Positions 3,956 to 20,138 are shown, numbered from the stretch's first letter. The stretch is 64,000 nucleotides of DNA from Candidatus Fimihabitans intestinipullorum (GCA_018714965.1 DVML01000007.1:74610-138609), one strand, 5' to 3'. The notes: generated from the sequence alone by a model not told the origin. Made by a program: numbers and translations.

Positions 3956-4660
3956 ATGAAATTAGAATTAAATCATATCGAAAAAAGATTCGACGATAAG
4001 GAAGTATTAAAGGATGTTTCTTTTACGTTTGAAGAGGGGCATATTTATGGGTTATTAGGGCGTAATGGAGCAGGAAAGACAACTCTTTTTAATTGTATCA
4101 ATGAGGATTTGAAAATAGATGCAGGAGAGTTTTATATCGAAGATAATAAAGGGAAAAGAAAAATTACGTCAGATGATATTGGTTATGTATTATCTACACC
4201 AATCGTTCCGGAATTTTTAACGGGAAGAGAGTTTTTAAAGTTTTTTATCGATATCAATCGACGTCGTATGAAAGAAGAAAAGACGATTGACGAATATTTT
4301 GAACTGATGAAAATAGACGAGGAAGATCGCGATAAACTCATGAAAGACTATTCTCATGGAATGAAAAATAAAATGCAACTTTTGGTCAATATTATTGCGA
4401 ATCCTAAAATATTATTGCTTGATGAACCACTAACCTCATTTGATGTCGTTGTGGCAGAAGAGATGAAAGGGCTATTAAAACAGCTAAAACATGACCATAT
4501 TTTGATTTTTTCTACACATATTATGGAATTGGCTTTAGATTTGTGCGATGAGATCGTCATATTAAATCACGGTGTATTAGAGGAAGTTGATCGTCATAAC
4601 TTAGAAAGAAATGCACTCAAAGATAAAATTATCTCTGCTTTGAAAGGAGAAGACGAATGA
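3956..4660 (+). CDS. ABC transporter ATP-binding protein
   Basis: Walker A GRNGAGKTT, Walker B LLLDEP; start moved to the ATG behind a GGAGG RBS (track ORF begins at 3851). Confidence 0.85.
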   Translation: MKLELNHIEKRFDDKEVLKDVSFTFEEGHIYGLLGRNGAGKTTLFNCINEDLKIDAGEFYIEDNKGKRKITSDDIGYVLSTPIVPEFLTGREFLKFFIDINRRRMKEEKTIDEYFELMKIDEEDRDKLMKDYSHGMKNKMQLLVNIIANPKILLLDEPLTSFDVVVAEEMKGLLKQLKHDHILIFSTHIMELALDLCDEIVILNHGVLEEVDRHNLERNALKDKIISALKGEDE

Positions 4661-6231
4661 TAGAAACATTTCTTTTGTCATTTCACCTTAAATTGACGTA
4701 TCGAAAAAATAGTATTATCTATGCATTCCAACAATTTCCTTTTATTGGAAAATATTTTTCTAACCATTTATATGGAAATGGTGGAATAGAAGCGTTGATT
4801 AGTGTGATTAGTGCATTCATTGAATTTATTTCTATTTTCCTTGGGAAATTTCTCTATATTTCGTTAATGGTGTTTTTACCCGCTTCTTTTTACAAGGGAA
4901 ACGAAGTATCATCTTTTCTCATTATCTTATTCTTTCTTACTATTGTAGGAACATGGTTGAATACAAATATGTTTAATCCTACTAAGGATAAGTATTATGC
5001 GATTGTCTTAATGCGAATGAATGCTAAAAAAGAGGCGATTTCAGAATATGGATATTTTCTTTTAAAGATGATCATAGGTATGTATCCATTTGTGTTCTTA
5101 TTTGGCTTTCTATCACATGTGCCTTGGCATTTATGCCTACTTGCGCCCTGGATGGTAGTTGGTTTAAAAGTCATATCGACGGCTTACAATCTGAATCTTT
5201 ATAAGAAAAGAGAATTAATTGTCAATGAAAATAAGCCAACCCCTGTCATTTGGATTTTCATTATATTATTTACGGTGCTTGCTTATATCGTTCCGTTATG
5301 TAAGATACTAGGAATAGAGTGGATTATGTTTTGTTGCTATTTACTTGTCATTATTCTTGGAATTATAATGTGGAAATACATTGTAGATTTCGACGATTAT
5401 TTTACAATATATAAGAAATTATTAACACCAGATCATGTGATCTTGAATGCGAAGAATACGCAGCAAGACACGTTGAGAAAAAACGCCTTAAATGCGATCG
5501 ACAATAAAAATCTGGCGACGAGTAATAAGAAGGGATATGATTTCTTTCACGAACTCTTTATTAAACGTCATCGCAAGATCTTGACGACATCTGCACATAA
5601 TATTGCTTTAGTTGCATTTGTTGTCACTTGCATTGCAGGTTTGGTGTTGGTTCTTGTGCCGGATGCAAAAAAGCCCATAAATAGTGTGATGATGAATTTC
5701 TTGCCATATTTTCTATTTATTATGTATTTGTTAAATCGAGGAAGTACGGTAACACAAGCGATGTTTATGAACTGTGATCATAGCATGCTGACTTACCGAT
5801 TCTATCGTCAACCTAAAACTATTTTGGAGTTATTTCGAAGACGTATTGTCGATATTGTAAAAATTAATCTAGAGCCTGCTTTCGTGATTGCACTCGCACT
5901 TCCATTTTTATTGTGGTTGAGTGGTGGAACTTCGGAAAGCTTAAATTATATTGTTTTATTTGTATCGATTATTTCTATGGCAATCTTTTTTTCAGTACAT
6001 CATCTCGTCATTTATTATTTGCTTCAACCATATAACATCAATATGGAAATGAAGAGCCCTGCTTACCAAGTCGTCAATTGGTCAACTTATTTCATTTGTT
6101 ATTATATGATGGATCTTAAGATGCCAACAATGGTATTTGGGACAGTTATGATAGTGTTTGCTGTAGCGTATGTTCTTATTTCGTTGTTTTTGGCATATCG
6201 ATATGCACCGAAGACATTTCATTTAAAGTAA
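4657..6231 (+). CDS. Polytopic membrane protein, probable permease partner of the preceding ABC ATPase
   Basis: 4-nt start/stop overlap with the ATPase gene; many hydrophobic helices; no family motif recognised. Confidence 0.55.
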   Translation: MIETFLLSFHLKLTYRKNSIIYAFQQFPFIGKYFSNHLYGNGGIEALISVISAFIEFISIFLGKFLYISLMVFLPASFYKGNEVSSFLIILFFLTIVGTWLNTNMFNPTKDKYYAIVLMRMNAKKEAISEYGYFLLKMIIGMYPFVFLFGFLSHVPWHLCLLAPWMVVGLKVISTAYNLNLYKKRELIVNENKPTPVIWIFIILFTVLAYIVPLCKILGIEWIMFCCYLLVIILGIIMWKYIVDFDDYFTIYKKLLTPDHVILNAKNTQQDTLRKNALNAIDNKNLATSNKKGYDFFHELFIKRHRKILTTSAHNIALVAFVVTCIAGLVLVLVPDAKKPINSVMMNFLPYFLFIMYLLNRGSTVTQAMFMNCDHSMLTYRFYRQPKTILELFRRRIVDIVKINLEPAFVIALALPFLLWLSGGTSESLNYIVLFVSIISMAIFFSVHHLVIYYLLQPYNINMEMKSPAYQVVNWSTYFICYYMMDLKMPTMVFGTVMIVFAVAYVLISLFLAYRYAPKTFHLK

Positions 6232-7518: not shown

Positions 7519-9630
7519 ATGGAAGAACAGATATTGGAGATACTTAGGCACGAGAAGAGAGCTTATTCTGTTTCAGAATTGGAAGATTTACTCGGCCTTG
7601 GTTCGGTGGAAGAACTAAAAGAATTATTAAAAACCTTAAATCGTTTAGAAGACCAATTAAAAGTATATCGTACAAATAAAAACAATTATATGTTATTTCA
7701 GAATAGTCATTTAAAGATAGGAAAGCTACTAGGAAATAAAAAAGGGTTTGGATTTGTCGATATCGAGGGAGACGATGATGTTTTCATCGCACCTTCACAT
7801 ATGAATAATGCAATTCACGGGGATACTGTCATCGTTGAAATTACTTCTCAAAAGGGAAGTGATTTGGAAGGTCGTGTCGTCAAGATTGTCGACCGTAAGT
7901 TAAAACAGATGGTTGGAGAATTTTACTATAAAGGCGGAAAAGGACATGTCGATTTAGATGACGATAAGGTAAAACTAAATATTGAGATCGATCAAGACAA
8001 GACACTAGGTGCTATGAATGGGCACAAAGTATTGGTAAAAATATTAAATAAATTAAAAGACAATAATTACAAGGGTCAAGTTGTAAAGATTCTAGGACAT
8101 AAAAACGATCCTGGAGTCGATATTCTATCGATTGTAGCAAAATATGAAATTAATGATACTTTTCCTGATGAAGTAATGGAACAAGTAGAGGGAATTGAAC
8201 TAGAAGTATCAGAAGAAGAAAAGAAAAATCGTCGTGATTTGAGAGATCATATGATTTTTACAATCGATGGAGACGATGCGAAAGATTTAGATGATGCAGT
8301 AGAATTTAAAAGACTTGAGAATGGTCATTATTTTTTAGGTGTTCATATCGCCGATGTATCTTATTATGTAAAAGAAAATACACCACTAGATAAAGAGGCG
8401 TTTGAACGTGGAACAAGCGTCTATTTAGCAGATCGAGTTATTCCGATGTTGCCGCATAAATTATCAAATGGAATTTGTTCGTTAAATGGTGGAGTAGATC
8501 GTTTAGCAATGTCATGCGAAATGGAAATCGACGAGAAAGGAAATGTCGTAGATTATGATATTTTTGAAAGTGTCATCAACTCTAAGAAGAGAATGACATA
8601 TAAATGTGTTAATCAAATATTAGAGAAAAATGAAATACCAGAGGGATATGAACCGTTTGTAGAATCGCTACATGGTATGGCAGAACTAGCCCATGTTTTA
8701 CGTAAAAATAAAGAAGAAAGAGGATATATCGATTTTGATATCGACGAAGCTAAAATCGTTGTAAATGAACAAGGTGAAGCTGTCGATGTCGTATTGCGTG
8801 AACGTGGTACGGGAGAAAAACTAATCGAAGACTTCATGATCGCTGCAAATGAAACGGTAGCAACACATATTTACTTTATGGAACTTCCATTTATCTATCG
8901 TGTTCATGGGGAACCGAATGAAGAAAAGATTAACAATTTTGTTCGATTTGTTGCTATGCTTGGATACAAGATTGAAGGAAAAGTAAAAGATATTCATCCA
9001 AAGACAATGCAGATGATATTGAATTCTTTGAAAGATAAAAAAGAGTTCCATATTTTATCATCTCTCTTATTACGTAGTATGCAAAAAGCTGTATACGATA
9101 AAAAGAACATTGGCCACTTTGGATTAGCTAGTAAGTGTTATACCCATTTTACTTCTCCAATCCGCAGATATCCAGATACGACAGTACATAGATTATTACG
9201 TACTTATCTATTTGAAAATCATATGGACAAAGATACGATCAACTATTGGGATCAAAAACTTATTTTTGTAGCAGAACATTCTTCTGAAAGAGAACGTGCA
9301 GCAGTCGCTTGTGAACGTGAAGTAGATGATATGAAGAAAGCAGAATATATGATGAAACATATTGGTGAAGAATATGAAGGAATCGTATCTAGCGTAATTA
9401 GTTTCGGAATGTTTGTCGAACTTGATAACCTAGTAGAAGGTCTTGTTCACATTGATACGTTGACAGATGATCAATACCACTTTGATGAAACGACGTTCGC
9501 ACTTGTAGGAGAAAGAAACAAACGAGGATATCGTTTGGGAGACCGCGTAAAAATCGTTGTTACAAATGCGAATAAGCAGACAAAAACAGTTGATTTTGAA
9601 TTAGTCAAAGAAAAGAAAGAAGTCGAGTAA
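7519..9630 (+). CDS. rnr: Ribonuclease R
   Basis: HTH and cold-shock-like N-terminus, RNB motifs TIDGDDAKDLDDAV and HFTSPIRRYPD, C-terminal S1 domain. Confidence 0.9.
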   Translation: MEEQILEILRHEKRAYSVSELEDLLGLGSVEELKELLKTLNRLEDQLKVYRTNKNNYMLFQNSHLKIGKLLGNKKGFGFVDIEGDDDVFIAPSHMNNAIHGDTVIVEITSQKGSDLEGRVVKIVDRKLKQMVGEFYYKGGKGHVDLDDDKVKLNIEIDQDKTLGAMNGHKVLVKILNKLKDNNYKGQVVKILGHKNDPGVDILSIVAKYEINDTFPDEVMEQVEGIELEVSEEEKKNRRDLRDHMIFTIDGDDAKDLDDAVEFKRLENGHYFLGVHIADVSYYVKENTPLDKEAFERGTSVYLADRVIPMLPHKLSNGICSLNGGVDRLAMSCEMEIDEKGNVVDYDIFESVINSKKRMTYKCVNQILEKNEIPEGYEPFVESLHGMAELAHVLRKNKEERGYIDFDIDEAKIVVNEQGEAVDVVLRERGTGEKLIEDFMIAANETVATHIYFMELPFIYRVHGEPNEEKINNFVRFVAMLGYKIEGKVKDIHPKTMQMILNSLKDKKEFHILSSLLLRSMQKAVYDKKNIGHFGLASKCYTHFTSPIRRYPDTTVHRLLRTYLFENHMDKDTINYWDQKLIFVAEHSSERERAAVACEREVDDMKKAEYMMKHIGEEYEGIVSSVISFGMFVELDNLVEGLVHIDTLTDDQYHFDETTFALVGERNKRGYRLGDRVKIVVTNANKQTKTVDFELVKEKKEVE

Positions 9631-11078: not shown

Positions 11079-11174
11079 ATCATTTCGCGTAGTCATCTTA
11101 GGAAGAATCACTCCAAAGAATATAATTGAGTTTATTTTAAAAATCATTTATAATAAGATTAGGACGGTGAAACT

Positions 11175-11615
11175 ATGATAGAAATTAACAACCGCAAAGC
11201 AAAATTTGATTATGAAATAGTAGATACGATAGAAGCAGGAATCGCATTAAAAGGAACAGAAATAAAATCAATCCGAAATGGAAATGCGAATTTGAAAGAT
11301 AGTTATGCGATCGTTCGAAATGGAGAAGTATTTCTTTTAAATATGTTTGTAAGTGAATATAAAGAGGGAAATCAATTTAATCACGATGAAACAAGAACGA
11401 GAAAGTTATTACTACATAAAAAGGAAATCTTAAAATTACATGATAAAATTCGCTTAGAAGGATTTACTTTAGTACCTTTGAAATTATACTTTAAAGAAAA
11501 TCATGCGAAAATTTTACTCGGTATTGCGAGAGGAAAGAAGCAATACGATAAAAGAGAAAGTATTAAAAAGCGTGATTCTATGCGTGAAGCACGTGCAGCT
11601 ATGAAGAGAAACTAA
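11175..11615 (+). CDS. smpB: SsrA-binding protein SmpB
   Basis: [10 protein letters not shown]...[14 protein letters not shown] and basic C-terminal tail. Confidence 0.95.
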
Positions 11616-11635
11616 GTAAAATCTAGGAGGTATGT

Positions 11636-13798
11636 ATGACGAATTTGGAACAAAAAATGATAATAGCTTTATTATGTGTGAATGAGGCAGTACCTGTGCA
11701 ATATTTTGAACGGATGATGACGAAAGAGGAAGTAGACACAACGATTCATGCACTCATGGAGAAAAAAATTATCCACAGATCTCATCATGGCAATGGAAAA
11801 TATCAACTGACTGCGAATGCTTCCATCGAAGGGAATGTCGTCGCGTTAGATGAAAACTATGTGATTGTTGCACCATCTGGAGATCACAATATTTTTGTTC
11901 CAAGATCCCCTTATGAGCATATTAGAATCGGAGATACCGTACTTGTAAATGCGATTTATCACTTTGATGGAAAATGTTTAGGAAAGATTCAAAAAAGAGT
12001 GATTCATCATAAAAAAAATTTAGTTGGAATTCCAATTCAAATAGAAAACGATTATTATGTCAATTACAAAGGAACTTTGTATAAGATTAATATGACACGG
12101 AAAAAGGATGATATTTTAAAGAAAGTCATTCGTTATAAACTAGTAAAAAAGAAAAGATATCAATCAACTTATGCAGAGCTGATTAAAGTGATTGGATCTC
12201 CGACGGACAAGGGAATTCAAAATAGTATCGTGTTAAATAGACTCGGAATTCACGATCACTTTCCAAAGGCAGTTCAACTAGAGGTTAAGTCTTTTCCAGA
12301 TAAAGTGACAAAGAGAGATTTGTTTGGCCGAGTCGATTGCAGAGATCATTTGGTAGTGACGATCGATGATGCGGATACAAAGGATATGGATGATGCAATT
12401 GAGGTAACGAAAACCGAGGATGGATATCGATTGATCGTACATATTGCTGATGTTGCACATTATGTGAAATATGGTTCTAAGTTATGGAAAGAAGTTTTTT
12501 ATAGGGGAACAAGTATCTACTGTTCGGATCGAGTAGAACCTATGTTGCCGGAAGAATTATCCAACCACTTGTGTTCGCTGAAAGAAGGCGTTGATCGTCT
12601 TGCGATGTCTTGTGAACTATGGTTTGATAAAAAAGGAAACGTAGTAAAAAGAGATATTTACGAAAGTGTAATTCGTTCCGAAAAAAAGATGAGTTACCAA
12701 GCTGTGAATCAAGTATTTCAAGGTAACATACCGGATGATTATCTTCCATTTGTTTCAAATTTATCAGTGATGAAGGAATTATCAGATTTGATTCGTGGGA
12801 AGATGTTGAGAGAAGGATATTTAAACTTTAACATTCCTGAGACGAGAATCACAGCAGGGAAAGAAGTGGAACCTAATATTCGTTTGCGAACTCGTTCGAT
12901 TGCCGAAGACATGATAGAAAACTTTATGATCATTGCAAATGAAGAGGTTGCGAAATACTTTGTAGAGAAGAATGCCTTAGCTATCTATCGAATTTTAGAA
13001 CGCCCAAAGATGCAAAAAGTATTAAAAATTTTAAGAGAGTTAGAACTTTCTGGCTATCGTATGAATTTAGAGGTGCCGGAAAATATAACTCCTCATTTCA
13101 TACAATCGCTTTTAAATGATATTCATACAACTAAGGATAAAATTGTTCAAGAAACGCTTGTCCATGTCATGAATCGGGCGGAGTATTCCCTGGAGGAAAT
13201 GATGCATTTTGGTATCGGTTCGATCTATACGCATTTTACATCTCCGATTCGAAGAATCAATGATTTATGTATTCATATGCTATTAAAACAGCACATTAAG
13301 CAATGGGAATTCTCAGAGTATGATGACGAAGAATTAAGAGAGATTCTTTTAAACGTGGCAACGCAAGCGACAAAGACGGAAAGGATTGCTAATGTTGTAG
13401 AACAAACGGATAAAAAGTTATGCGAGGTAGAATATATGTTGCATCATAAAGAGGAAGAGTTTAATGCACAGATTATCAATATGAATGGGCATCGAATGAT
13501 CGTGCAGTTAGAAGATAGTTTGATCGAAGGGAATGTGTTCTATAAAGATGTAAACCAAGAATGGAAGTATTTTGATCAAAAGAAAACATTAGTGAGAAAA
13601 GATGGAACAGAATTAAAAGTAGGTGACTATATCAGAGTAGTATTATCTCCTGACTGTTATGGATTATCTACCGTTGATTTAGCAATGCATCCGATAAACG
13701 GGAATATCAAACTTTTAAATTTTTCGATTATTGGTGTTGGAAAAATGGAAAAAGAAACCAAGAAATTTCTGTGTAAGAAAAATTGCCAAAATGCATAA
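11636..13798 (+). CDS. RNase II/RNase R family exoribonuclease (second paralog)
   Basis: RNB motifs TIDDADTKDMDDAI and HFTSPIRRINDL; overall architecture parallels rnr at 7519-9630. Confidence 0.8.
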   Translation: MTNLEQKMIIALLCVNEAVPVQYFERMMTKEEVDTTIHALMEKKIIHRSHHGNGKYQLTANASIEGNVVALDENYVIVAPSGDHNIFVPRSPYEHIRIGDTVLVNAIYHFDGKCLGKIQKRVIHHKKNLVGIPIQIENDYYVNYKGTLYKINMTRKKDDILKKVIRYKLVKKKRYQSTYAELIKVIGSPTDKGIQNSIVLNRLGIHDHFPKAVQLEVKSFPDKVTKRDLFGRVDCRDHLVVTIDDADTKDMDDAIEVTKTEDGYRLIVHIADVAHYVKYGSKLWKEVFYRGTSIYCSDRVEPMLPEELSNHLCSLKEGVDRLAMSCELWFDKKGNVVKRDIYESVIRSEKKMSYQAVNQVFQGNIPDDYLPFVSNLSVMKELSDLIRGKMLREGYLNFNIPETRITAGKEVEPNIRLRTRSIAEDMIENFMIIANEEVAKYFVEKNALAIYRILERPKMQKVLKILRELELSGYRMNLEVPENITPHFIQSLLNDIHTTKDKIVQETLVHVMNRAEYSLEEMMHFGIGSIYTHFTSPIRRINDLCIHMLLKQHIKQWEFSEYDDEELREILLNVATQATKTERIANVVEQTDKKLCEVEYMLHHKEEEFNAQIINMNGHRMIVQLEDSLIEGNVFYKDVNQEWKYFDQKKTLVRKDGTELKVGDYIRVVLSPDCYGLSTVDLAMHPINGNIKLLNFSIIGVGKMEKETKKFLCKKNCQNA

Positions 13799-13822
13799 AC
13801 TATGGTATAATCTAGCTTACAC

Positions 13823-14207
13823 GGGGATGTCTAGGTTTCGACGGGATTACTAGGTCTTTTGTGGCAAGTCGGAGGTACACGTTACGTACAAACAGAAAAA
13901 TAACTGGAAAAAATTTAAAAAATGTATTAGCTAACATGTTCTCTACAAAGAGTGCTGTAGCTTTCGCCTAATTTAAGGAAAGGCATACGCTTCTATTTAT
14001 TCTTTGCCTACGAGAGTATATAGGGGTTCATCAAAGTAGGATATAGCAATTTTTCGTCTAAGAAAATTGTGGAACTTTATTAGACTTACGAAAAGATAAG
14101 TTGTTGATTCCTCACATCTTTTCGGACAATGAATGAATCAACTAAACTTGTAGAAGCAGAAGGGATGGTAGTTTCGGACATCGGTTCGAGTCCGATCATC
14201 TCCACCA
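13823..14207 (+). ncRNA. ssrA: tmRNA (SsrA)
   Basis: 5' GGGGAUG pairs with 3' CAUCUCC-ACCA including G3-U; T-arm GGTTCGAGTCC. Tag frame GGA 13906 to TAA 13971 behind AUAACU encodes (A)GKNLKNVLANMFSTKSAVAFA. TGgTATAAT extended -10 at 13803-13811. Confidence 0.9.
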
Positions 14208-14218
14208 ATTTGAAAATC

Positions 14219-14247
14219 ACTTGAGCTAGACATAGTTCAAGTTTTTA
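14219..14247 (+). terminator. Rho-independent terminator after ssrA
   Basis: ACTTGAGCT-loop-AGTTCAAGT hairpin (one G-U pair) plus TTTT. Confidence 0.65.
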
Positions 14248-14356
14248 TGTGCTTTTCAGTGTCTGAAAAACTACTGAAAGAATAAAAAAGCGTTTATATT
14301 TTAGATAAATAGTTAAAAGTGATTGAATCAAAAAAGTGTTTTTTTGAAAAGTTGTG

Positions 14357-14365
14357 TGTTATAAT
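14357..14365 (+). promoter_or_regulatory. Extended -10 promoter element for the retron transcript
   Basis: TGtTATAAT located 5-6 nt upstream of the a1 repeat. Confidence 0.45.
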
Positions 14366-14370
14366 GATTT

Positions 14371-14528
14371 TGCAGTAGTGATTGGAATTATTTCCTACTT
14401 TAACGAGTCGTTAAGGGACTAGATTGATGATAACGATAAAATTGTAATATTCCAAAGGACTAACCTACACGGTGTGTAGGCGCTTCGCTTTAAGTCCATT
14501 TCCATATTACAATATCGCTAGTACTGCA
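14371..14528 (+). ncRNA. Candidate retron msr/msd non-coding RNA
   Basis: Non-coding stretch directly upstream of the RT. Flanking inverted repeats TGCAGTAGTGAT / ATCGCtagTACTGCA, two short hairpins, then a long imperfect hairpin 14441-14513. Confidence 0.6.
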
Positions 14529-14547
14529 CACAGGGGAGGTAGCAAAA

Positions 14548-15504
14548 ATGTGGAAATACATTGGCACGAAAGAATGCAATGATTTTTTGCTATCTCTTCA
14601 TTTAATTGATTGTTTGGATCAGAGAAAATACATAAAAACTATATACTCTATTAGTAATAATATTGAAAAAAATTATAAAATTTATAAAATAAAAAAGAGT
14701 AATGGTGGGTATAGAACTATATATGAGCCCAATCCTCTTTTGAAACAAATTCAAAAACGTATTTTAACTAGTATACTCAATCATAAAGCGATATCAAGAT
14801 ACGCAAAAGCGTATCATAAAGGAACTCAATTAAAGGATAATGCATTTCCTCATGTTAACAAAAATATGATGTTGAAGTTAGATATTAAAAATTTTTTTGA
14901 GACGATCACATTTTTAGATATTTATAATTCTTGTTTTTCAATAGAATATTTTCCTAAGTCAGTTGGGATGATTCTAACTTACTTATGTACGTATGATAAT
15001 CACTTGACGCAAGGATCTCCCACATCTCCTTACATATCAAATTTAGTGATGCAAGAGTTTGATGAAGAATTAGGTAGTTGGTGTGATTTAATGGGAATAT
15101 CATATACAAGATATTCAGATGATATGACTTTTTCTGGACAATTTAATCCCAGAAAAATAATATCTAAAGTTAGAAAAATGTTGTATCGTTTGGGAATGGA
15201 ATTAAATGATAGTAAGACACACGTTGTGTACAAATCATCCAGCCAAAAAGTTACTGGTGTTGTAGTGAATGAAAAAATGCAAGTGAGCAAAAGGTACCGT
15301 AATAAAATACGACAAGAAATATATTATATTAAAAAGTTTGGATTGAATTCTCATTTGAAAAAATGTAATATTGATATTAATTCAATAACATATGTAAATA
15401 TATTGTACGGGAAAATTCTTTACGTTTTACAAATTAACGAAACTGATAAGGAATTTATAAAATACAAACAATTTATCAAAGATTTAAAAGGCAATATAGG
15501 TTAG
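14548..15504 (+). CDS. Retron-type reverse transcriptase
   Basis: 318 aa; motifs YRTIYEPNPLLKQIQKRI, NAFPH (NAxxH), LTQGSPTSPYISN, YSDD, VTGVVVN; GGGGAGG RBS. Confidence 0.85.
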   Translation: MWKYIGTKECNDFLLSLHLIDCLDQRKYIKTIYSISNNIEKNYKIYKIKKSNGGYRTIYEPNPLLKQIQKRILTSILNHKAISRYAKAYHKGTQLKDNAFPHVNKNMMLKLDIKNFFETITFLDIYNSCFSIEYFPKSVGMILTYLCTYDNHLTQGSPTSPYISNLVMQEFDEELGSWCDLMGISYTRYSDDMTFSGQFNPRKIISKVRKMLYRLGMELNDSKTHVVYKSSSQKVTGVVVNEKMQVSKRYRNKIRQEIYYIKKFGLNSHLKKCNIDINSITYVNILYGKILYVLQINETDKEFIKYKQFIKDLKGNIG

Positions 15505-15516
15505 AATTGCCTTTTT
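15487..15516 (+). terminator. Hairpin overlapping the RT stop codon (weak or partial terminator)
   Basis: AAAGGCAAT-loop-ATTGCCTTT 9-bp stem followed by only a short T tract. Confidence 0.4.
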
Positions 15517-15596
15517 AGATACAAAAATTACAGACATTTGCACAATATTCTTTTTTGTAGTAGTATATATAACAATTGAAAAAGGAATAAGTTTAT

Positions 15597-16274
15597 ATGG
15601 CGACAAAACTAGAGAAAATGAAATGGAAATTACATAGAAAAAAATATGATATACTGTTTAATTATGGAGTGAAGCATGGCCTAATTAAGTCTTATGATGA
15701 TAAGTTGATAGAAAGTTTAAGACATGTTTATTACGGAGGAATTTCAGCATCTATATTATTACTACATGAAGGGTTAAGTAATGGGAATTGTTATGATAGA
15801 GGAAGCTTGATCACTTTAGGTTTTAGTGATGATGATTTTCAAGTGGTGGATGCAGATATTGATAGTTTAAGATTGAATCCTAAATATATTGATGAATATA
15901 AAGAAAGTGATGAAGGTTTTATAAACCATTGTTTTGCAGAAAGAACGTTGAAAGATGGTACGACGTGGGTATATGATACCTCGATAGGATTAGTGTTTGC
16001 AAAAGATTTATACTATAAATTGGAAAACCCTAAAATTACAAAGATTAACAACAAAAGGGCGACATTAGAATTTTTATCTTATGAGTTGGGGCATAATGTA
16101 GATTTAAATAACGACAAATATGCTTTACCTATGATATTACCATATATCGAAAAACGATTAGAACCAACACAGCAATTTTATTTAGAACAATTAAAACAAG
16201 AAATAGAGCTACTAAAAAAAGAGGTTCAGTATGATCAAGTTTGCAAAAAAGTACATGCTGGTATAAAACTATAG
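15597..16274 (+). CDS. Hypothetical protein in the retron effector position; possible transglutaminase/papain-like Cys-His-Asp fold
   Basis: 225 aa with no TM helix and no NTPase motif; GNC65YDRG ... NH111CFAE ... WVYD127TS has spacing typical of transglutaminase-like cysteine peptidases. Confidence 0.5.
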   Translation: MATKLEKMKWKLHRKKYDILFNYGVKHGLIKSYDDKLIESLRHVYYGGISASILLLHEGLSNGNCYDRGSLITLGFSDDDFQVVDADIDSLRLNPKYIDEYKESDEGFINHCFAERTLKDGTTWVYDTSIGLVFAKDLYYKLENPKITKINNKRATLEFLSYELGHNVDLNNDKYALPMILPYIEKRLEPTQQFYLEQLKQEIELLKKEVQYDQVCKKVHAGIKL

Positions 16275-16352
16275 AATCTAAGTTAATGGATAAAGGAGCA
16301 GCGAATGTTTCATTCAAAAATGTTAGCTAAAGGATTTGAAGTCTTGATTATA

Positions 16353-16381
16353 TTGACTATTGATTAGATACTAACTATAAT
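16353..16381 (+). promoter_or_regulatory. Sigma-A type promoter for the NDK-fusion gene
   Basis: TTGACT, 17-nt spacer, TATAAT, about 20 nt upstream of the RBS. Confidence 0.5.
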
Positions 16382-16403
16382 AAAAAAACGAAAGGAAGAT
16401 GCT

Positions 16404-17405
16404 ATGAAAGAACGAACTTATGCGATGTTGAAACCAGATGGAGTAAAAAAAGGGTTGTTGAAGGAAGTTATTAGAAGGTTTGAGAAAGTGGGATTAACCG
16501 TATCCCATATCAAGGAAATGGAATTAGATGCTGGAATTGTAAAGCAACACTACGCTCACTTAGTAGACAAACCATTTTATCCGACGTTAGAAGCATTCAT
16601 GTTGTCAGGGCCAGTTGTTGCGATGATCGTAGAAGGAGAATCTGCTGTAAGTAAGGTAAGAGAATTGATGGGAGCAACGGATAGCAAGGATGCTTTACCA
16701 GGAACGATTCGTGGTGATTATGGAGATAAGACGTGTTGTACTTATAATATTATTCATGGATCTGATTCTTTAGAAAATGCAGAAATTGAAATCGATCGTT
16801 TTTATCCAGAATTACAACTAAAACCATATGGTGCGGAAGAATTGAAAGTGATTTTAAATGCTGTGCGATTAGTTAAAAGATTTCATATTACAGAAAATGG
16901 TGAAATTCATTCCGCAATGGCAGAAGAATATTTGAAGTGGTTGAATCAATATGCAGTTTATTGTTCGGAAGATAAACAAGAAGCATGGAAGAAGGATACG
17001 CATGATATCGTATATCGCCCAAAAGTGATAAAACCAATCTGTGAAAGAGATATGAAAGCACAACAAATAATTGCTAATGATGATTATGGAATTATTGATG
17101 ATCTATATAATTTTATGGATGCAGGAGAAATTATGAAGACTTATCATGAGACAGAGTCATGGCAAAAAGTTTATGAGGTGTTGAAAGGTCAAGGACATAG
17201 TGGATATACGTTTAGTGGTGTTGCAAGCATCATATTGGAGTATGCTTCGTTTGGAGTAGATTTTATCGATCGATACTGTCCTGAGAGAATCAATTATGAT
17301 GAAGAATTTAAAAAAGTATATATGGGTAGGAAGAAGCGGAATGAACATGTAGAATCATCTGGTTTGGAACCATCTTATGAGCTTATGCTTCGACCTAAAA
17401 AATAG
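16404..17405 (+). CDS. ndk: Nucleoside diphosphate kinase domain fused to a roughly 190-aa C-terminal domain of unknown function
   Basis: N-terminal ~135 aa is canonical NDK (YAMLKPDGV, catalytic NIIHGSDS); the rest matches nothing I recognise. Confidence 0.8.
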   Translation: MKERTYAMLKPDGVKKGLLKEVIRRFEKVGLTVSHIKEMELDAGIVKQHYAHLVDKPFYPTLEAFMLSGPVVAMIVEGESAVSKVRELMGATDSKDALPGTIRGDYGDKTCCTYNIIHGSDSLENAEIEIDRFYPELQLKPYGAEELKVILNAVRLVKRFHITENGEIHSAMAEEYLKWLNQYAVYCSEDKQEAWKKDTHDIVYRPKVIKPICERDMKAQQIIANDDYGIIDDLYNFMDAGEIMKTYHETESWQKVYEVLKGQGHSGYTFSGVASIILEYASFGVDFIDRYCPERINYDEEFKKVYMGRKKRNEHVESSGLEPSYELMLRPKK

Positions 17406-17509
17406 TAAAGAGAGATCTTTAGTGGAGCGCTTTTGTAAATTGAAATAGATAAAAGAACAAGCCAAATATAATAGTGGATATTACAATGGCGTTTTTCTTG
17501 GAGGAACCA

Positions 17510-18184
17510 ATGCTTGAATTAGAAAAATATGTACAAAAAGAGATTAAAATTGAACGAGTTAATTTTGAATGCGTTGATTTAAAAATTGTGCAAGATTTAG
17601 TGGAGTCATTAGAAAAAATGTTGGCGCTTTATCCTGAGATAAAGCCATTCATCCATGCGATAGGGACTAGACCGTTTTTGCAAAAATGCATAGATGAAAT
17701 CGAAATAAAAATGAAAGAAGAAGCAACGTTAGAAGAGCTTACACAAATGCGACAATATTTGGTTCAAAAAGAATCTTCCAATAATCCTATGATGCTTTTT
17801 CATTCGTATATGGATCAAGGGCAACCGTGTATTATGTTTGGATTAGAACCTTATTTGGAAGATTGTACACATCAAGAGCTAATCACTACAATAAAAAACA
17901 TCAAAAAACGCAATTCTATTACAACCGTGTACAATCCAAGTGTGATCATGTACCATGAATTTGGACATTGTCTTGATTTTTTATTAAGTGTAAGTTATGA
18001 TACAGAAATATTTTGTGCGATGATGCAAAAAGGGATAGATCCAGAAAGATATTGGTATACGGGGAGTGAATTATATGCAGATGCTTTTGCAGAATATTAT
18101 GCGAATCCTAATGCAGCTCCAATTTGTAATAAAGTTGTACAATATACCAACCGACAATATCATCGTCAATTTGTAAGGAAATGA
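17510..18184 (+). CDS. Putative zinc metalloprotease, HExxH (anthrax lethal factor/ATLF-like pattern)
   Basis: YHEFGHCLDF followed ~35 aa later by SELYADAFAEYY; start placed at the ATG behind GGAGG (track ORF begins at GTG 17474). Confidence 0.5.
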   Translation: MLELEKYVQKEIKIERVNFECVDLKIVQDLVESLEKMLALYPEIKPFIHAIGTRPFLQKCIDEIEIKMKEEATLEELTQMRQYLVQKESSNNPMMLFHSYMDQGQPCIMFGLEPYLEDCTHQELITTIKNIKKRNSITTVYNPSVIMYHEFGHCLDFLLSVSYDTEIFCAMMQKGIDPERYWYTGSELYADAFAEYYANPNAAPICNKVVQYTNRQYHRQFVRK

Positions 18185-18190
18185 TAAAGA

Positions 18191-18219
18191 AATCCTAAGT
18201 GAGATCACTTAGGATTTTA
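18191..18219. terminator. Bidirectional terminator between convergent genes
   Basis: AATCCTAAGTG-agat-CACTTAGGATT 11-bp perfect stem flanked by A/T runs. Confidence 0.7.
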
Positions 18220-18234
18220 TATTACATTGAAATA

Positions 18235-19581
18235 TTATTTTTTTTTGATGTGTGGAATTTCTATCTTTTGGTTAGAAAAGTTCCAATTCATTTGATAATC
18301 TGGCAATAATTTCGTTTTAATCGGCATCATTCTTGGAATTAAAATGACAGCTTCGAAACGCTTCATCATTTTTAACTCTTCTACTGTGATGAGTGGAATA
18401 ATCATGCCATGTTCTTCTTTATTACCACACATTTTACTAATTTCTTCTAGTGTTTCAATGTTGTTAGATAATAAATAAATTATATTTCGGAATGTCAATT
18501 TAATAATTTCAGCATCTTCTTTTCCATACAAGTTAGTAAGAGCTTGTAAACTTTGAATCACGGCAGTGATTCGAATAGAAAGACCACGTGCATAACTTGC
18601 GATATTATTGAAATCAACGATCGGCATAAGTTTATCAAACTCATCTAAGATAATATTCATACCATGATTTTTGTTATTGTATAGACGGATTACTTGATAA
18701 GCTTGATCTATGAATAGTGGAATAAAGGTACTACTATATGAACTAGTACCGCTAATCATAAATACCGCTGTCTTTTCTGTGACAATTGTTTTAAAGTCAA
18801 AATCTGTGCATGCCGTCATGTTAGAAAATTGAATTCTTGAAATATATTTTTTCAATTTCTGATTAGTAACAGATAAGATACTTCCTTTTGTTTCAGGTGG
18901 GGCTAATAAAGTCCCAACTAAATTCATATAAATTGTAGAAGTATGATCTAAGCTATCCATTAACTCTTTTGCCATGCTGATGTCTGATCCTTTTTTGTTT
19001 TCTTGCAACTCACAAGAAAATGTAAAAATTTTACGGAATGTAATATTTTCTTTTTTCTCGTTTTCGAATAAATATAGTACAAGTCCAGTAAAATAATCGA
19101 TAGATGTATTTATCCAGAATGGGTCCCCTTGATAATGAGGTTCTGCAAAGATGTAGTGGGCGATATGTTCTACTAATTCGAGTGCTAGATCTTGTTTACC
19201 TGCATGGTATAAGTCGTATGGAAAAGTAAATGGATTCCAACAGTTTCCTCTTTCTAAACGATCTAAATCTAAAATGATTGTTTGATAACCGCGTTCTTTT
19301 AATTCTCCAGATACAAGTTCGTATAATTCACCTTTGCAATCATTTACGATAAGTGATTTTCCTGTTTGAATTCCAAGACGAATTTCCGGTAACATACAAG
19401 CTTGCGTTTTTCCAGATCCTTGCGAAGCAATGACAAGAGTATGTCCTGTTTCCTCATTGACGTATAGTGTGTTTCCTTCATATCCCATAGGAATACCAGA
19501 AACCGTTTTATTTTGTTCTGGAATGACCGGTGTTAGAATCTTTGCTAACTCTTCCTTGCTTGACCATCTTGCATAATGCAT
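18235..19581 (-). CDS. VirD4/TraG/TraD-like type IV coupling protein family ATPase (soluble, orphan)
   Basis: Walker A SQGSGKTQ, Walker B NIILDEFDKL, coupling-protein-like RGLSIRITAVIQSLQALTNLYG; no N-terminal TM helices. Confidence 0.65.
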   Translation of the reverse strand: MHYARWSSKEELAKILTPVIPEQNKTVSGIPMGYEGNTLYVNEETGHTLVIASQGSGKTQACMLPEIRLGIQTGKSLIVNDCKGELYELVSGELKERGYQTIILDLDRLERGNCWNPFTFPYDLYHAGKQDLALELVEHIAHYIFAEPHYQGDPFWINTSIDYFTGLVLYLFENEKKENITFRKIFTFSCELQENKKGSDISMAKELMDSLDHTSTIYMNLVGTLLAPPETKGSILSVTNQKLKKYISRIQFSNMTACTDFDFKTIVTEKTAVFMISGTSSYSSTFIPLFIDQAYQVIRLYNNKNHGMNIILDEFDKLMPIVDFNNIASYARGLSIRITAVIQSLQALTNLYGKEDAEIIKLTFRNIIYLLSNNIETLEEISKMCGNKEEHGMIIPLITVEELKMMKRFEAVILIPRMMPIKTKLLPDYQMNWNFSNQKIEIPHIKKK

Positions 19582-19676
19582 ATTTCTCCCTCCTTTCTAA
19601 CCACAGTATAACACCTCTATAAACAAAAAGTTAAACAATAATGAACTTATGGTATAATAGTGCTAGGGTGGTTTTT

Positions 19677-20138
19677 ATGTATTCTGATGAACTGGTATGT
19701 GATATGTTGAATTACATTCATGATCATTTGTATGAAACGATATCGATGGATGAATTAAGTAGACGATTTTTTTACGATAAAAGTTATCTTATGAGAAAAT
19801 TTAAAAAAGCGTTAGGAATGACAATTGGTTATTATGTCAATGCGATGCGAATTTATAATAGCTTGTCTTCTTATCAAACGGGGGATTCCGTATTAAAAAT
19901 TGCGCTATTTCATGGTTTTCACTCTATCGAATATTATAGTGAGGTGTTTCGCTCAATGATGGGAGTGAGTCCTAGAACATATAAAAAGTTTGTTCAATAT
20001 CGCTATTATGAAAATGAAGATGAATACTATAAAATGACAACAACAGTTGTCCAACTACAGTCTTTAAAGAAATTTGTATCTGATTATCAGAGTCGTAGAA
20101 AACCAGTAAAATTACCGGTCAAGAAAATTCGTTTGTAA
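19677..20138 (+). CDS. AraC family transcriptional regulator
   Basis: Two HTH_AraC units (ISMDELSRRFFYDKSYLMRKFKKALGMT; GFHSIEYYSEVFRSMMGVSPRTYKK). Confidence 0.8.
   Translation: MYSDELVCDMLNYIHDHLYETISMDELSRRFFYDKSYLMRKFKKALGMTIGYYVNAMRIYNSLSSYQTGDSVLKIALFHGFHSIEYYSEVFRSMMGVSPRTYKKFVQYRYYENEDEYYKMTTTVVQLQSLKKFVSDYQSRRKPVKLPVKKIRL

Follow-up and report, generated by a model that had tools for sequence, protein, structure and literature searches.

The locus directly behind the transfer-messenger RNA (tmRNA) gene ssrA of Candidatus Fimihabitans intestinipullorum, a gut Mycoplasmatota metagenome-assembled genome (MAG), raises the question whether a retron-type reverse transcriptase (RT) and the gene that follows it, encoding a protein of 225 amino acids (aa), make up a retron with a new class of effector. 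The locus lies in a stretch of 64,000 nucleotides (nt) (GCA_018714965.1 DVML01000007.1:74610-138609), here called the window, and coordinates are window positions unless a locus is named. A preliminary description of this DNA had proposed an undescribed subtype of tripartite retron built from a non-coding RNA (ncRNA), the RT and the 225-aa protein as effector. Our analysis indicated that approximately 14254-15515 is very probably a self-contained, stand-alone Ec107-like retron cassette, which entered the space between the terminator of ssrA and a 225-aa gene that was already there. Judged from sequence, the locus is a further case of the known stand-alone (orphan) kind of retron and not a new effector class.

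The RT gene and its immediate signals were identified as follows.

14535-14539, plus strand: ribosome-binding site of the RT gene, GGAGG (read from the sequence; conserved in the 46-sequence upstream alignment)
14548-15504, plus strand: retron RT, 318 aa, not fused to any further domain (PADLOC, Pfam RVT_1, PDB relatives)
15486-15515, plus strand: terminator-like hairpin and U-run overlapping the RT stop codon (-9.6 kcal/mol, z = -2.8)

The open reading frame (ORF) displayed the motifs YRTIYEPNPLLKQIQKRI, NAFPH, LTQGSPTSPYISN, YSDD and VTGVVVN, and so contained both region X (NAxxH) and the VTG motif of retron-clade RTs. A total of 55 PADLOC retron RT models matched it. The best was RT_Ec107-like (3.4e-125, 415.5 bits, profile positions 2-306 of 307), which was 66 bits ahead of the runner-up RT_III-A (349.1 bits, 6e-105). 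The nearest solved structures in the PDB were retron RTs throughout, with Ec86 at 3e-35. A dN/dS of about 0.11 against its relatives indicated that the RT is under purifying selection. The counterpart hairpin behind the RT of locus L021 had a folding energy of -12.7 kcal/mol (z = -4.0).

The region between ssrA and the RT gene contained the following elements.

14357-14365, plus strand: extended -10 box TGtTATAAT, with no good -35 (read from the sequence)
14371-14528, plus strand: retron ncRNA (msr-msd), from fold and covariation
14371-14377 and 14522-14528, plus strand: a1 (TGCAGTA) and a2 (TACTGCA), the inverted repeat bounding the ncRNA
14378, plus strand: candidate branching (priming) G immediately 3' of a1, an invariant column
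14521, plus strand: opposing invariant G immediately 5' of a2
14384-14395, plus strand: msr hairpin 1, GGAA/TTCC, 95.5% paired, with compensatory changes in 3/3 pairs
14398-14416, plus strand: msr hairpin 2, CTTTAACGA/TCGTTAAGG, 100% paired, with compensatory changes in 4/8 pairs
14441-14513, plus strand: long msd hairpin, the predicted template of the msDNA, with compensatory changes in 6/10, 5/5 and 5/7 pairs (helices 6-8)
14457-14461/14493-14497 and 14464-14470/14474-14480, plus strand: inner msd stems

The fold of the single sequence (minimum free energy -43.7 kcal/mol, z = -2.78) was only moderately above chance, as 2 of 200 shuffled sequences were equally stable. In this sequence alone, the second small hairpin was placed at 14400-14414. 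The fold was also examined by covariation in 46 distinct upstream regions, aligned from 92 loci with RT relatives at 45-100% identity. Standard pairs occupied 91.7% of the cells in the 45 mapped pairs, against 34-45% when the 3' partners were slid. Changes on both sides were found in 28 of the 45 pairs, including 4/7 pairs of the a1/a2 stem, and none of 500 shuffles matched the observed covariation. RNAalifold independently recovered a1/a2, msr hairpin 2 and the msd tip. This comparison of homologous sequences argues decisively for a fold beyond chance. G14378 and G14521 (alignment columns G13 and G156), situated at the inner end of a1/a2, were invariant in 46/46 sequences, and we infer that they correspond to the "two opposing G residues" carried by retron ncRNAs (PMC7736814). 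The motif YTTTRRYGAGTCRYYAARG was found a single time in each RT locus and a single time in the window. A TATAAT box, usually preceded by TGn, was located 5-10 nt ahead of a1 in most of 64 distinct upstream regions. An Rfam scan of 13700-16500 in E-value mode detected only the tmRNA and matched no retron RNA family.

The ncRNA immediately upstream of the RT thus comprised a1/a2 with opposing Gs, msr stem-loops and a long msd stem-loop. Taken from the RT class, the covarying fold, the invariant Gs and the selection on the RT, the assignment as a retron (msr-msd ncRNA plus retron-type RT) appears secure. The preliminary description had already placed a retron directly 3' of ssrA, and this part of it was confirmed: its coordinates and motifs were all present in the sequence, including the extended -10 box, the ORF at 14548-15504 was a retron-type RT by motifs, PADLOC models and PDB relatives, and the proposed layout of a1/a2, two small hairpins and one long hairpin was supported by the 46 homologous loci. 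Two of the checks that it had suggested for this part, a profile search of the RT against retron models and a test of 14371-14528 for fold and covariation, were carried out and gave the results above, with RT_Ec107-like as best model over the full length.

The extent of the cassette was defined by comparison with a lineage that lacks it.

13823-14207: tmRNA gene ssrA (ARAGORN; Rfam 164 bits)
14219-14242: terminator-like hairpin behind ssrA
14254-15522, plus strand: inserted cassette, missing from the retron-less sister lineage (blastn and junction alignment)
14254-14359, plus strand: left end of the insertion, 106 bp; homology to other retron copies begins only at 14360

The closest genome locus, L001 from the sister lineage, had 92-94% nucleotide identity to the window. 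It kept the genes for smpB, the RNB-family protein, ssrA, the 225-aa protein, a nucleoside-diphosphate kinase (NDK) fusion, a HExxH protein and a protein resembling type IV secretion system (T4SS) coupling proteins, all without the retron. In blastn, window positions 11131-14253 corresponded to L001 2803-5925 and positions 15523-20000 to L001 5927-10403, leaving 1 base between the two blocks. Because the sister lineage has the same locus without the retron, the segment of about 1.26 kb was regarded as an insertion. Its right edge lies between approximately 15508 and 15522, where the junction alignment was ambiguous, and the insert (14254 to about 15515) contained the promoter, ncRNA, RT and terminator. 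The empty site was found in 10 contigs from independent assemblies, including GCA_902493485.1, and at least 22 contigs had the filled site; since both arrangements recur, assembly artefacts do not account for them.

Homology to other retron copies was limited to 14360-15507, that is from the -10 box through the RT stop, and short units of equal extent were present in L026, L034, L038 and L050. With blastn-short, 14254-14365 matched same-species loci only and had no homologue in the other retron loci fetched. No recombinase, transposase, integrase or prophage was found at the insertion site, and no target-site duplication was convincing at the junctions, where there was only a vague A-rich resemblance that we do not claim. 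A second copy of the ssrA 3' end, which would mark the other end of an island, was not present in the window. The 106-bp left segment was rich in A and T and contained small inverted repeats (14253-14269 and 14328-14347).

Relatives of the RT outside this species were collected from 86 loci with 45-82% identity. Most of them stood alone between housekeeping genes, such as those for MetRS, a Mur ligase, 3-hydroxyacyl-CoA dehydrogenase, a CofD-like protein and an epimerase, and PADLOC gave no match on these housekeeping-type neighbours. No neighbour family was common to most of the 86 loci. The sole recurrent neighbour was an ABC-type ATPase of 288 aa (AAA_15/AAA_21).

L021:2926-3792: 288-aa ATPase, reference copy

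The strongest alternative to a self-contained cassette follows from this ATPase: the window copy could be a truncated three-part system which lost an upstream ATPase effector and is now a relic or depends on an ATPase encoded elsewhere. The gene ends 207-215 nt before the RT in 19 of the 86 relatives (L021, L033, L036, L043-45, L048, L059-64, L096, L100 and L113-116), in at least six different flanking contexts, and DNA homology between these contexts begins precisely at the start of the ATPase gene and ends precisely at the RT stop. Its top PADLOC matches were the defence ATPases mad3, PtuA and AriA (about 1e-15), pairwise identities of ATPase and RT were correlated (r = 0.89), and the homology of the window to other copies starts where the ATPase gene would end. 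However, orthologues of the ATPase with 74-86% identity were found without any RT, beside ligA and genes for HD-domain, DUF2207_C and DUF5680 proteins, and the ATPase was better conserved than the RT. Both observations would be expected if the ATPase were a conserved gene of the host, beside which an insertion took place long ago. Moreover, the ATPase was missing in 67 of the 86 relatives, many of them flanked by housekeeping genes, and the window contained no homologue of it beyond weak matches to ordinary ABC-transporter ATPases. We therefore did not adopt the upstream ATPase as effector, given its RT-less orthologues beside housekeeping genes, and we consider loss of such an effector unlikely, although it is by some way the best of the alternatives. 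From sequence comparison the ATPase may be a retron partner not described so far, or it may belong to the host and mark the place of an old insertion.

In the relatives L021-L026, which are 81% identical, the RT gene (4001-4960) abuts a convergent serine recombinase gene (4955-6085, minus strand) and Mob/relaxase genes, a setting that has the appearance of an integrative mobilisable element. The place of the ATPase is taken by an IS110 transposase in L026, where homology to L021 begins at the ncRNA (L021 position 3813). No RT relative with more than 45% identity was found in IMG/VR, which was searched for carriage by phages.

The second alternative is the tripartite retron originally proposed, with the 225-aa protein as effector.

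15597-16274, plus strand: 225-aa gene, by our analysis a resident gene and not part of the retron; 20 genome loci, L001 among them, have it and no RT

Several properties of this gene favour such a role. It has the same orientation as the RT gene and starts 92 nt behind it, with only a weak RT terminator in between. The ORF is real, and its protein matched nothing in PADLOC, Pfam, NCBIfam or PHROGs. An AF2 model was confident (pLDDT 90) and novel-looking, with conserved Cys65, His111 and Asp127. A profile search against PDB sequences returned nothing at E<=10, and Foldseek of the model against PDB and BFVD gave only matches with E>0.04, the weak best being papain-like or transglutaminase-like thiol enzymes, which would be in keeping with the conserved Cys/His/Asp but which we do not regard as evidence. 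The family comprised about 95 homologue clusters from MAGs of gut Bacilli/'Tenericutes', all unannotated. Cys65 and Asp67 were invariant and His111, Cys112, Glu115 and Asp127 nearly invariant; the conserved Cys65, His111, Cys112, Glu115 and Asp127 suggest that the protein may be a thiol enzyme.

The distribution of the gene argues against this role. No RT was detected in any of 20 genome loci with 225-aa homologues, 13 of which have upstream sequence long enough for an RT (tblastn, and an hmmsearch of 168 kb with RT profiles, E<=10, in which positive controls were included), and the conserved msr motif was likewise absent from them. In the other direction, a 225-aa homologue within 4 kb was absent at all 86 RT loci of other organisms. 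The sister lineage, which lacks the retron, has the gene together with its 5' region, the unit common to retron copies stops at the RT stop before the gene is reached, and a toxin restrained by a retron is not expected to survive alone across many genomes. Because it occurs without an RT in 20 loci, is absent at the 86 RT loci and is present in the retron-less sister lineage, we conclude on comparative grounds that this neighbouring gene was resident at the site, has no relation to the retron and is not its effector. A lack of synteny between the family and RTs in other genomes had been named in the preliminary description as refuting its proposal, and this lack was observed; the effector link fails, and the RT, by its best HMM, falls into the already described Ec107-like group. 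A tripartite retron of an undescribed subtype is very unlikely. The contexts of the 225-aa family were variable, and a paralogue or a related gene of 203-234 aa was often found directly behind (L007:5914-7412; L018:6184-7444; also L005, L006, L009, L011, L014 and L020).

That the RT belongs to a group II intron, a diversity-generating retroelement (DGR) or the Abi or UG/DRT types, with incidental hairpins upstream, can practically be dismissed: the cross-matches to group II intron maturase and Drt2 models were weak (55 and 52 bits against 216 for a retron model, a lead of more than 150 bits), NAxxH and VTG are both present in the ORF, the RNA upstream of it is laid out as in retrons, covaries strongly and has the two invariant Gs facing each other, and neither an intron RNA domain nor a DGR template/variable repeat was present, with the tmRNA as the only Rfam match.

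Some observations weigh against a stand-alone Ec107-like cassette. The placement as Ec107-like rests on the best HMM score and on architecture, not on phylogeny, and the host belongs to the Mycoplasmatota, whereas RT clade 2, to which Ec107 belongs, was reported to be mostly gammaproteobacterial (PMC7736814). Owing to the weak terminator behind the RT (-9.6 kcal/mol), read-through into the 225-aa gene is possible. An effector encoded in trans is also possible, as only 64 kb of the genome are visible. The ATPase upstream of about 22% of the relatives means that the lineage may not be truly effector-less, in which case this copy could be a truncated derivative. Finally, the case for msDNA and for the priming G is drawn from what is established for retron biochemistry in general.

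Taking the locus as a stand-alone cassette, its working may be outlined as follows. A single transcript would start a few nt past 14365. Pairing of a1 (14371-77) with a2 (14522-28) would set G14378 opposite G14521. The RT, translated from the same RNA, would recognise the conserved msr hairpins, prime from the 2'-OH of G14378 and copy the msd hairpin, starting on the template near 14520 and ending near 14440, which would yield about 80 nt of msDNA. In the canonical retron scheme, the complex of RT and msDNA restrains a toxin, and release of the toxin leads to abortive infection. The cassette alone cannot run this scheme, because it encodes no effector, and neither an effector gene nor a fused domain co-occurred with the RT across genomes. 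Selection on the cassette must act via a partner in trans or via the RT/msDNA itself.

More broadly, and only tentatively, this copy could be part of a large lineage in gut Bacilli/Mycoplasmatota, made up of bare units of ncRNA and RT of about 1.2 kb, which move without a mobility gene and are under strong purifying selection without an effector in cis. This somewhat doubtful extension would imply a role of RT/msDNA that is free of effectors, or an undescribed trans-acting or modular partner, for which the 288-aa AAA_15 ATPase would be the candidate. If the ATPase is indeed a partner, it would define a new retron type.

The results remove a tempting false lead, namely a new retron effector class, and provide a clean natural orphan retron with an insertion defined against an empty site, an ncRNA backed by covariation, candidate Gs for priming and template, and an RT under selection. 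The persistence of effector-less retrons was a question raised in the 2020 classification (PMC7736814). An abundant gut lineage with and without the upstream ATPase offers matched constructs for this question. What novelty is left concerns the question of orphan retrons and, among relatives, the association with the ATPase.

The genes around the cassette were also surveyed. Around smpB are two genes of the RNB family (RNase R/II-like), at 7519-9630 and 11636-13798. The first encodes 703 aa with OB, CSD, RNB and S1 domains, and the second, immediately upstream of ssrA, is an RNB-only paralogue of 720 aa with 33% identity to it. An S66 peptidase gene is located between both RNB genes in the window and is missing in some strains (L027, L029). 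On the other side, behind the 225-aa gene, 16404-17405 encodes an NDK domain (residues 1-136) with a C-terminal extension of about 195 aa without a family match, and a promoter-like site (16353-16381, 11/12 matches) precedes it. It adjoins, in the sister lineage too, an ORF of 236 aa (17474-18184) with the HExxH-type motif HEFGH, which had no match in Pfam, PADLOC, NCBIfam or PHROGs. A 448-aa homologue of VirD4/TraG-type T4SS coupling proteins is encoded at 18235-19581 on the minus strand (T4SS-DNA_transf, 7e-47) and is also kept in the retron-less lineage; no further conjugation gene was found among the few neighbouring ORFs scanned around it.

Compared with known systems, type I-A retrons (Ec78/Ec83, consisting of RT, PtuA-like ABC ATPase and HNH protein) resemble the locus only via its relatives, whose 288-aa ATPase has weak similarity to PtuA. 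The window has neither such an ATPase gene nor an HNH gene, and the ATPase of the relatives is about half the length of PtuA, is not accompanied by an HNH protein, is encoded upstream of the ncRNA and also occurs without an RT. Type III-A retrons (RT and PRTase-like protein, with or without a winged-helix protein) gave the second-best models for the RT itself, with RT_III-A at 6e-105. No PRTase-like or winged-helix partner adjoins the window RT according to PADLOC, Pfam and NCBIfam on the flanking genes; the five downstream proteins had no type III-A match in PADLOC, and upstream are smpB, the RNB-family gene and ssrA.

The closest resemblance was to the branch of RT clade 2 with Retron-Eco5 (Ec107), in which Mestre et al. 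2020 described stand-alone (msr-msd)-RT cassettes without an associated protein and left their function open (PMC7736814); this branch shares a node with PRTase-linked RTs (PMC7736814). The window RT differs from that of Ec107 in having YSDD instead of YCDD, in its host, a gut Mycoplasmatota MAG as opposed to Gammaproteobacteria, and in its insertion beside ssrA, whereas Ec107 is located between pyrE and ttk. Some relatives of the window RT carry the upstream ATPase, which was not reported for the branch. The similarities concern the RT and the architecture. RT_Ec107-like was the best model over the full length of a 318-aa RT without a fused domain, and the cassette consists only of msr-msd and RT, in about 1.2-1.3 kb, with no conserved associated protein. 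In the case of Ec107, 34 bp of intergenic sequence were replaced and no mobile element lies close by (PMC6868368), and the window cassette likewise sits in an intergenic spot without a mobile element at the site.

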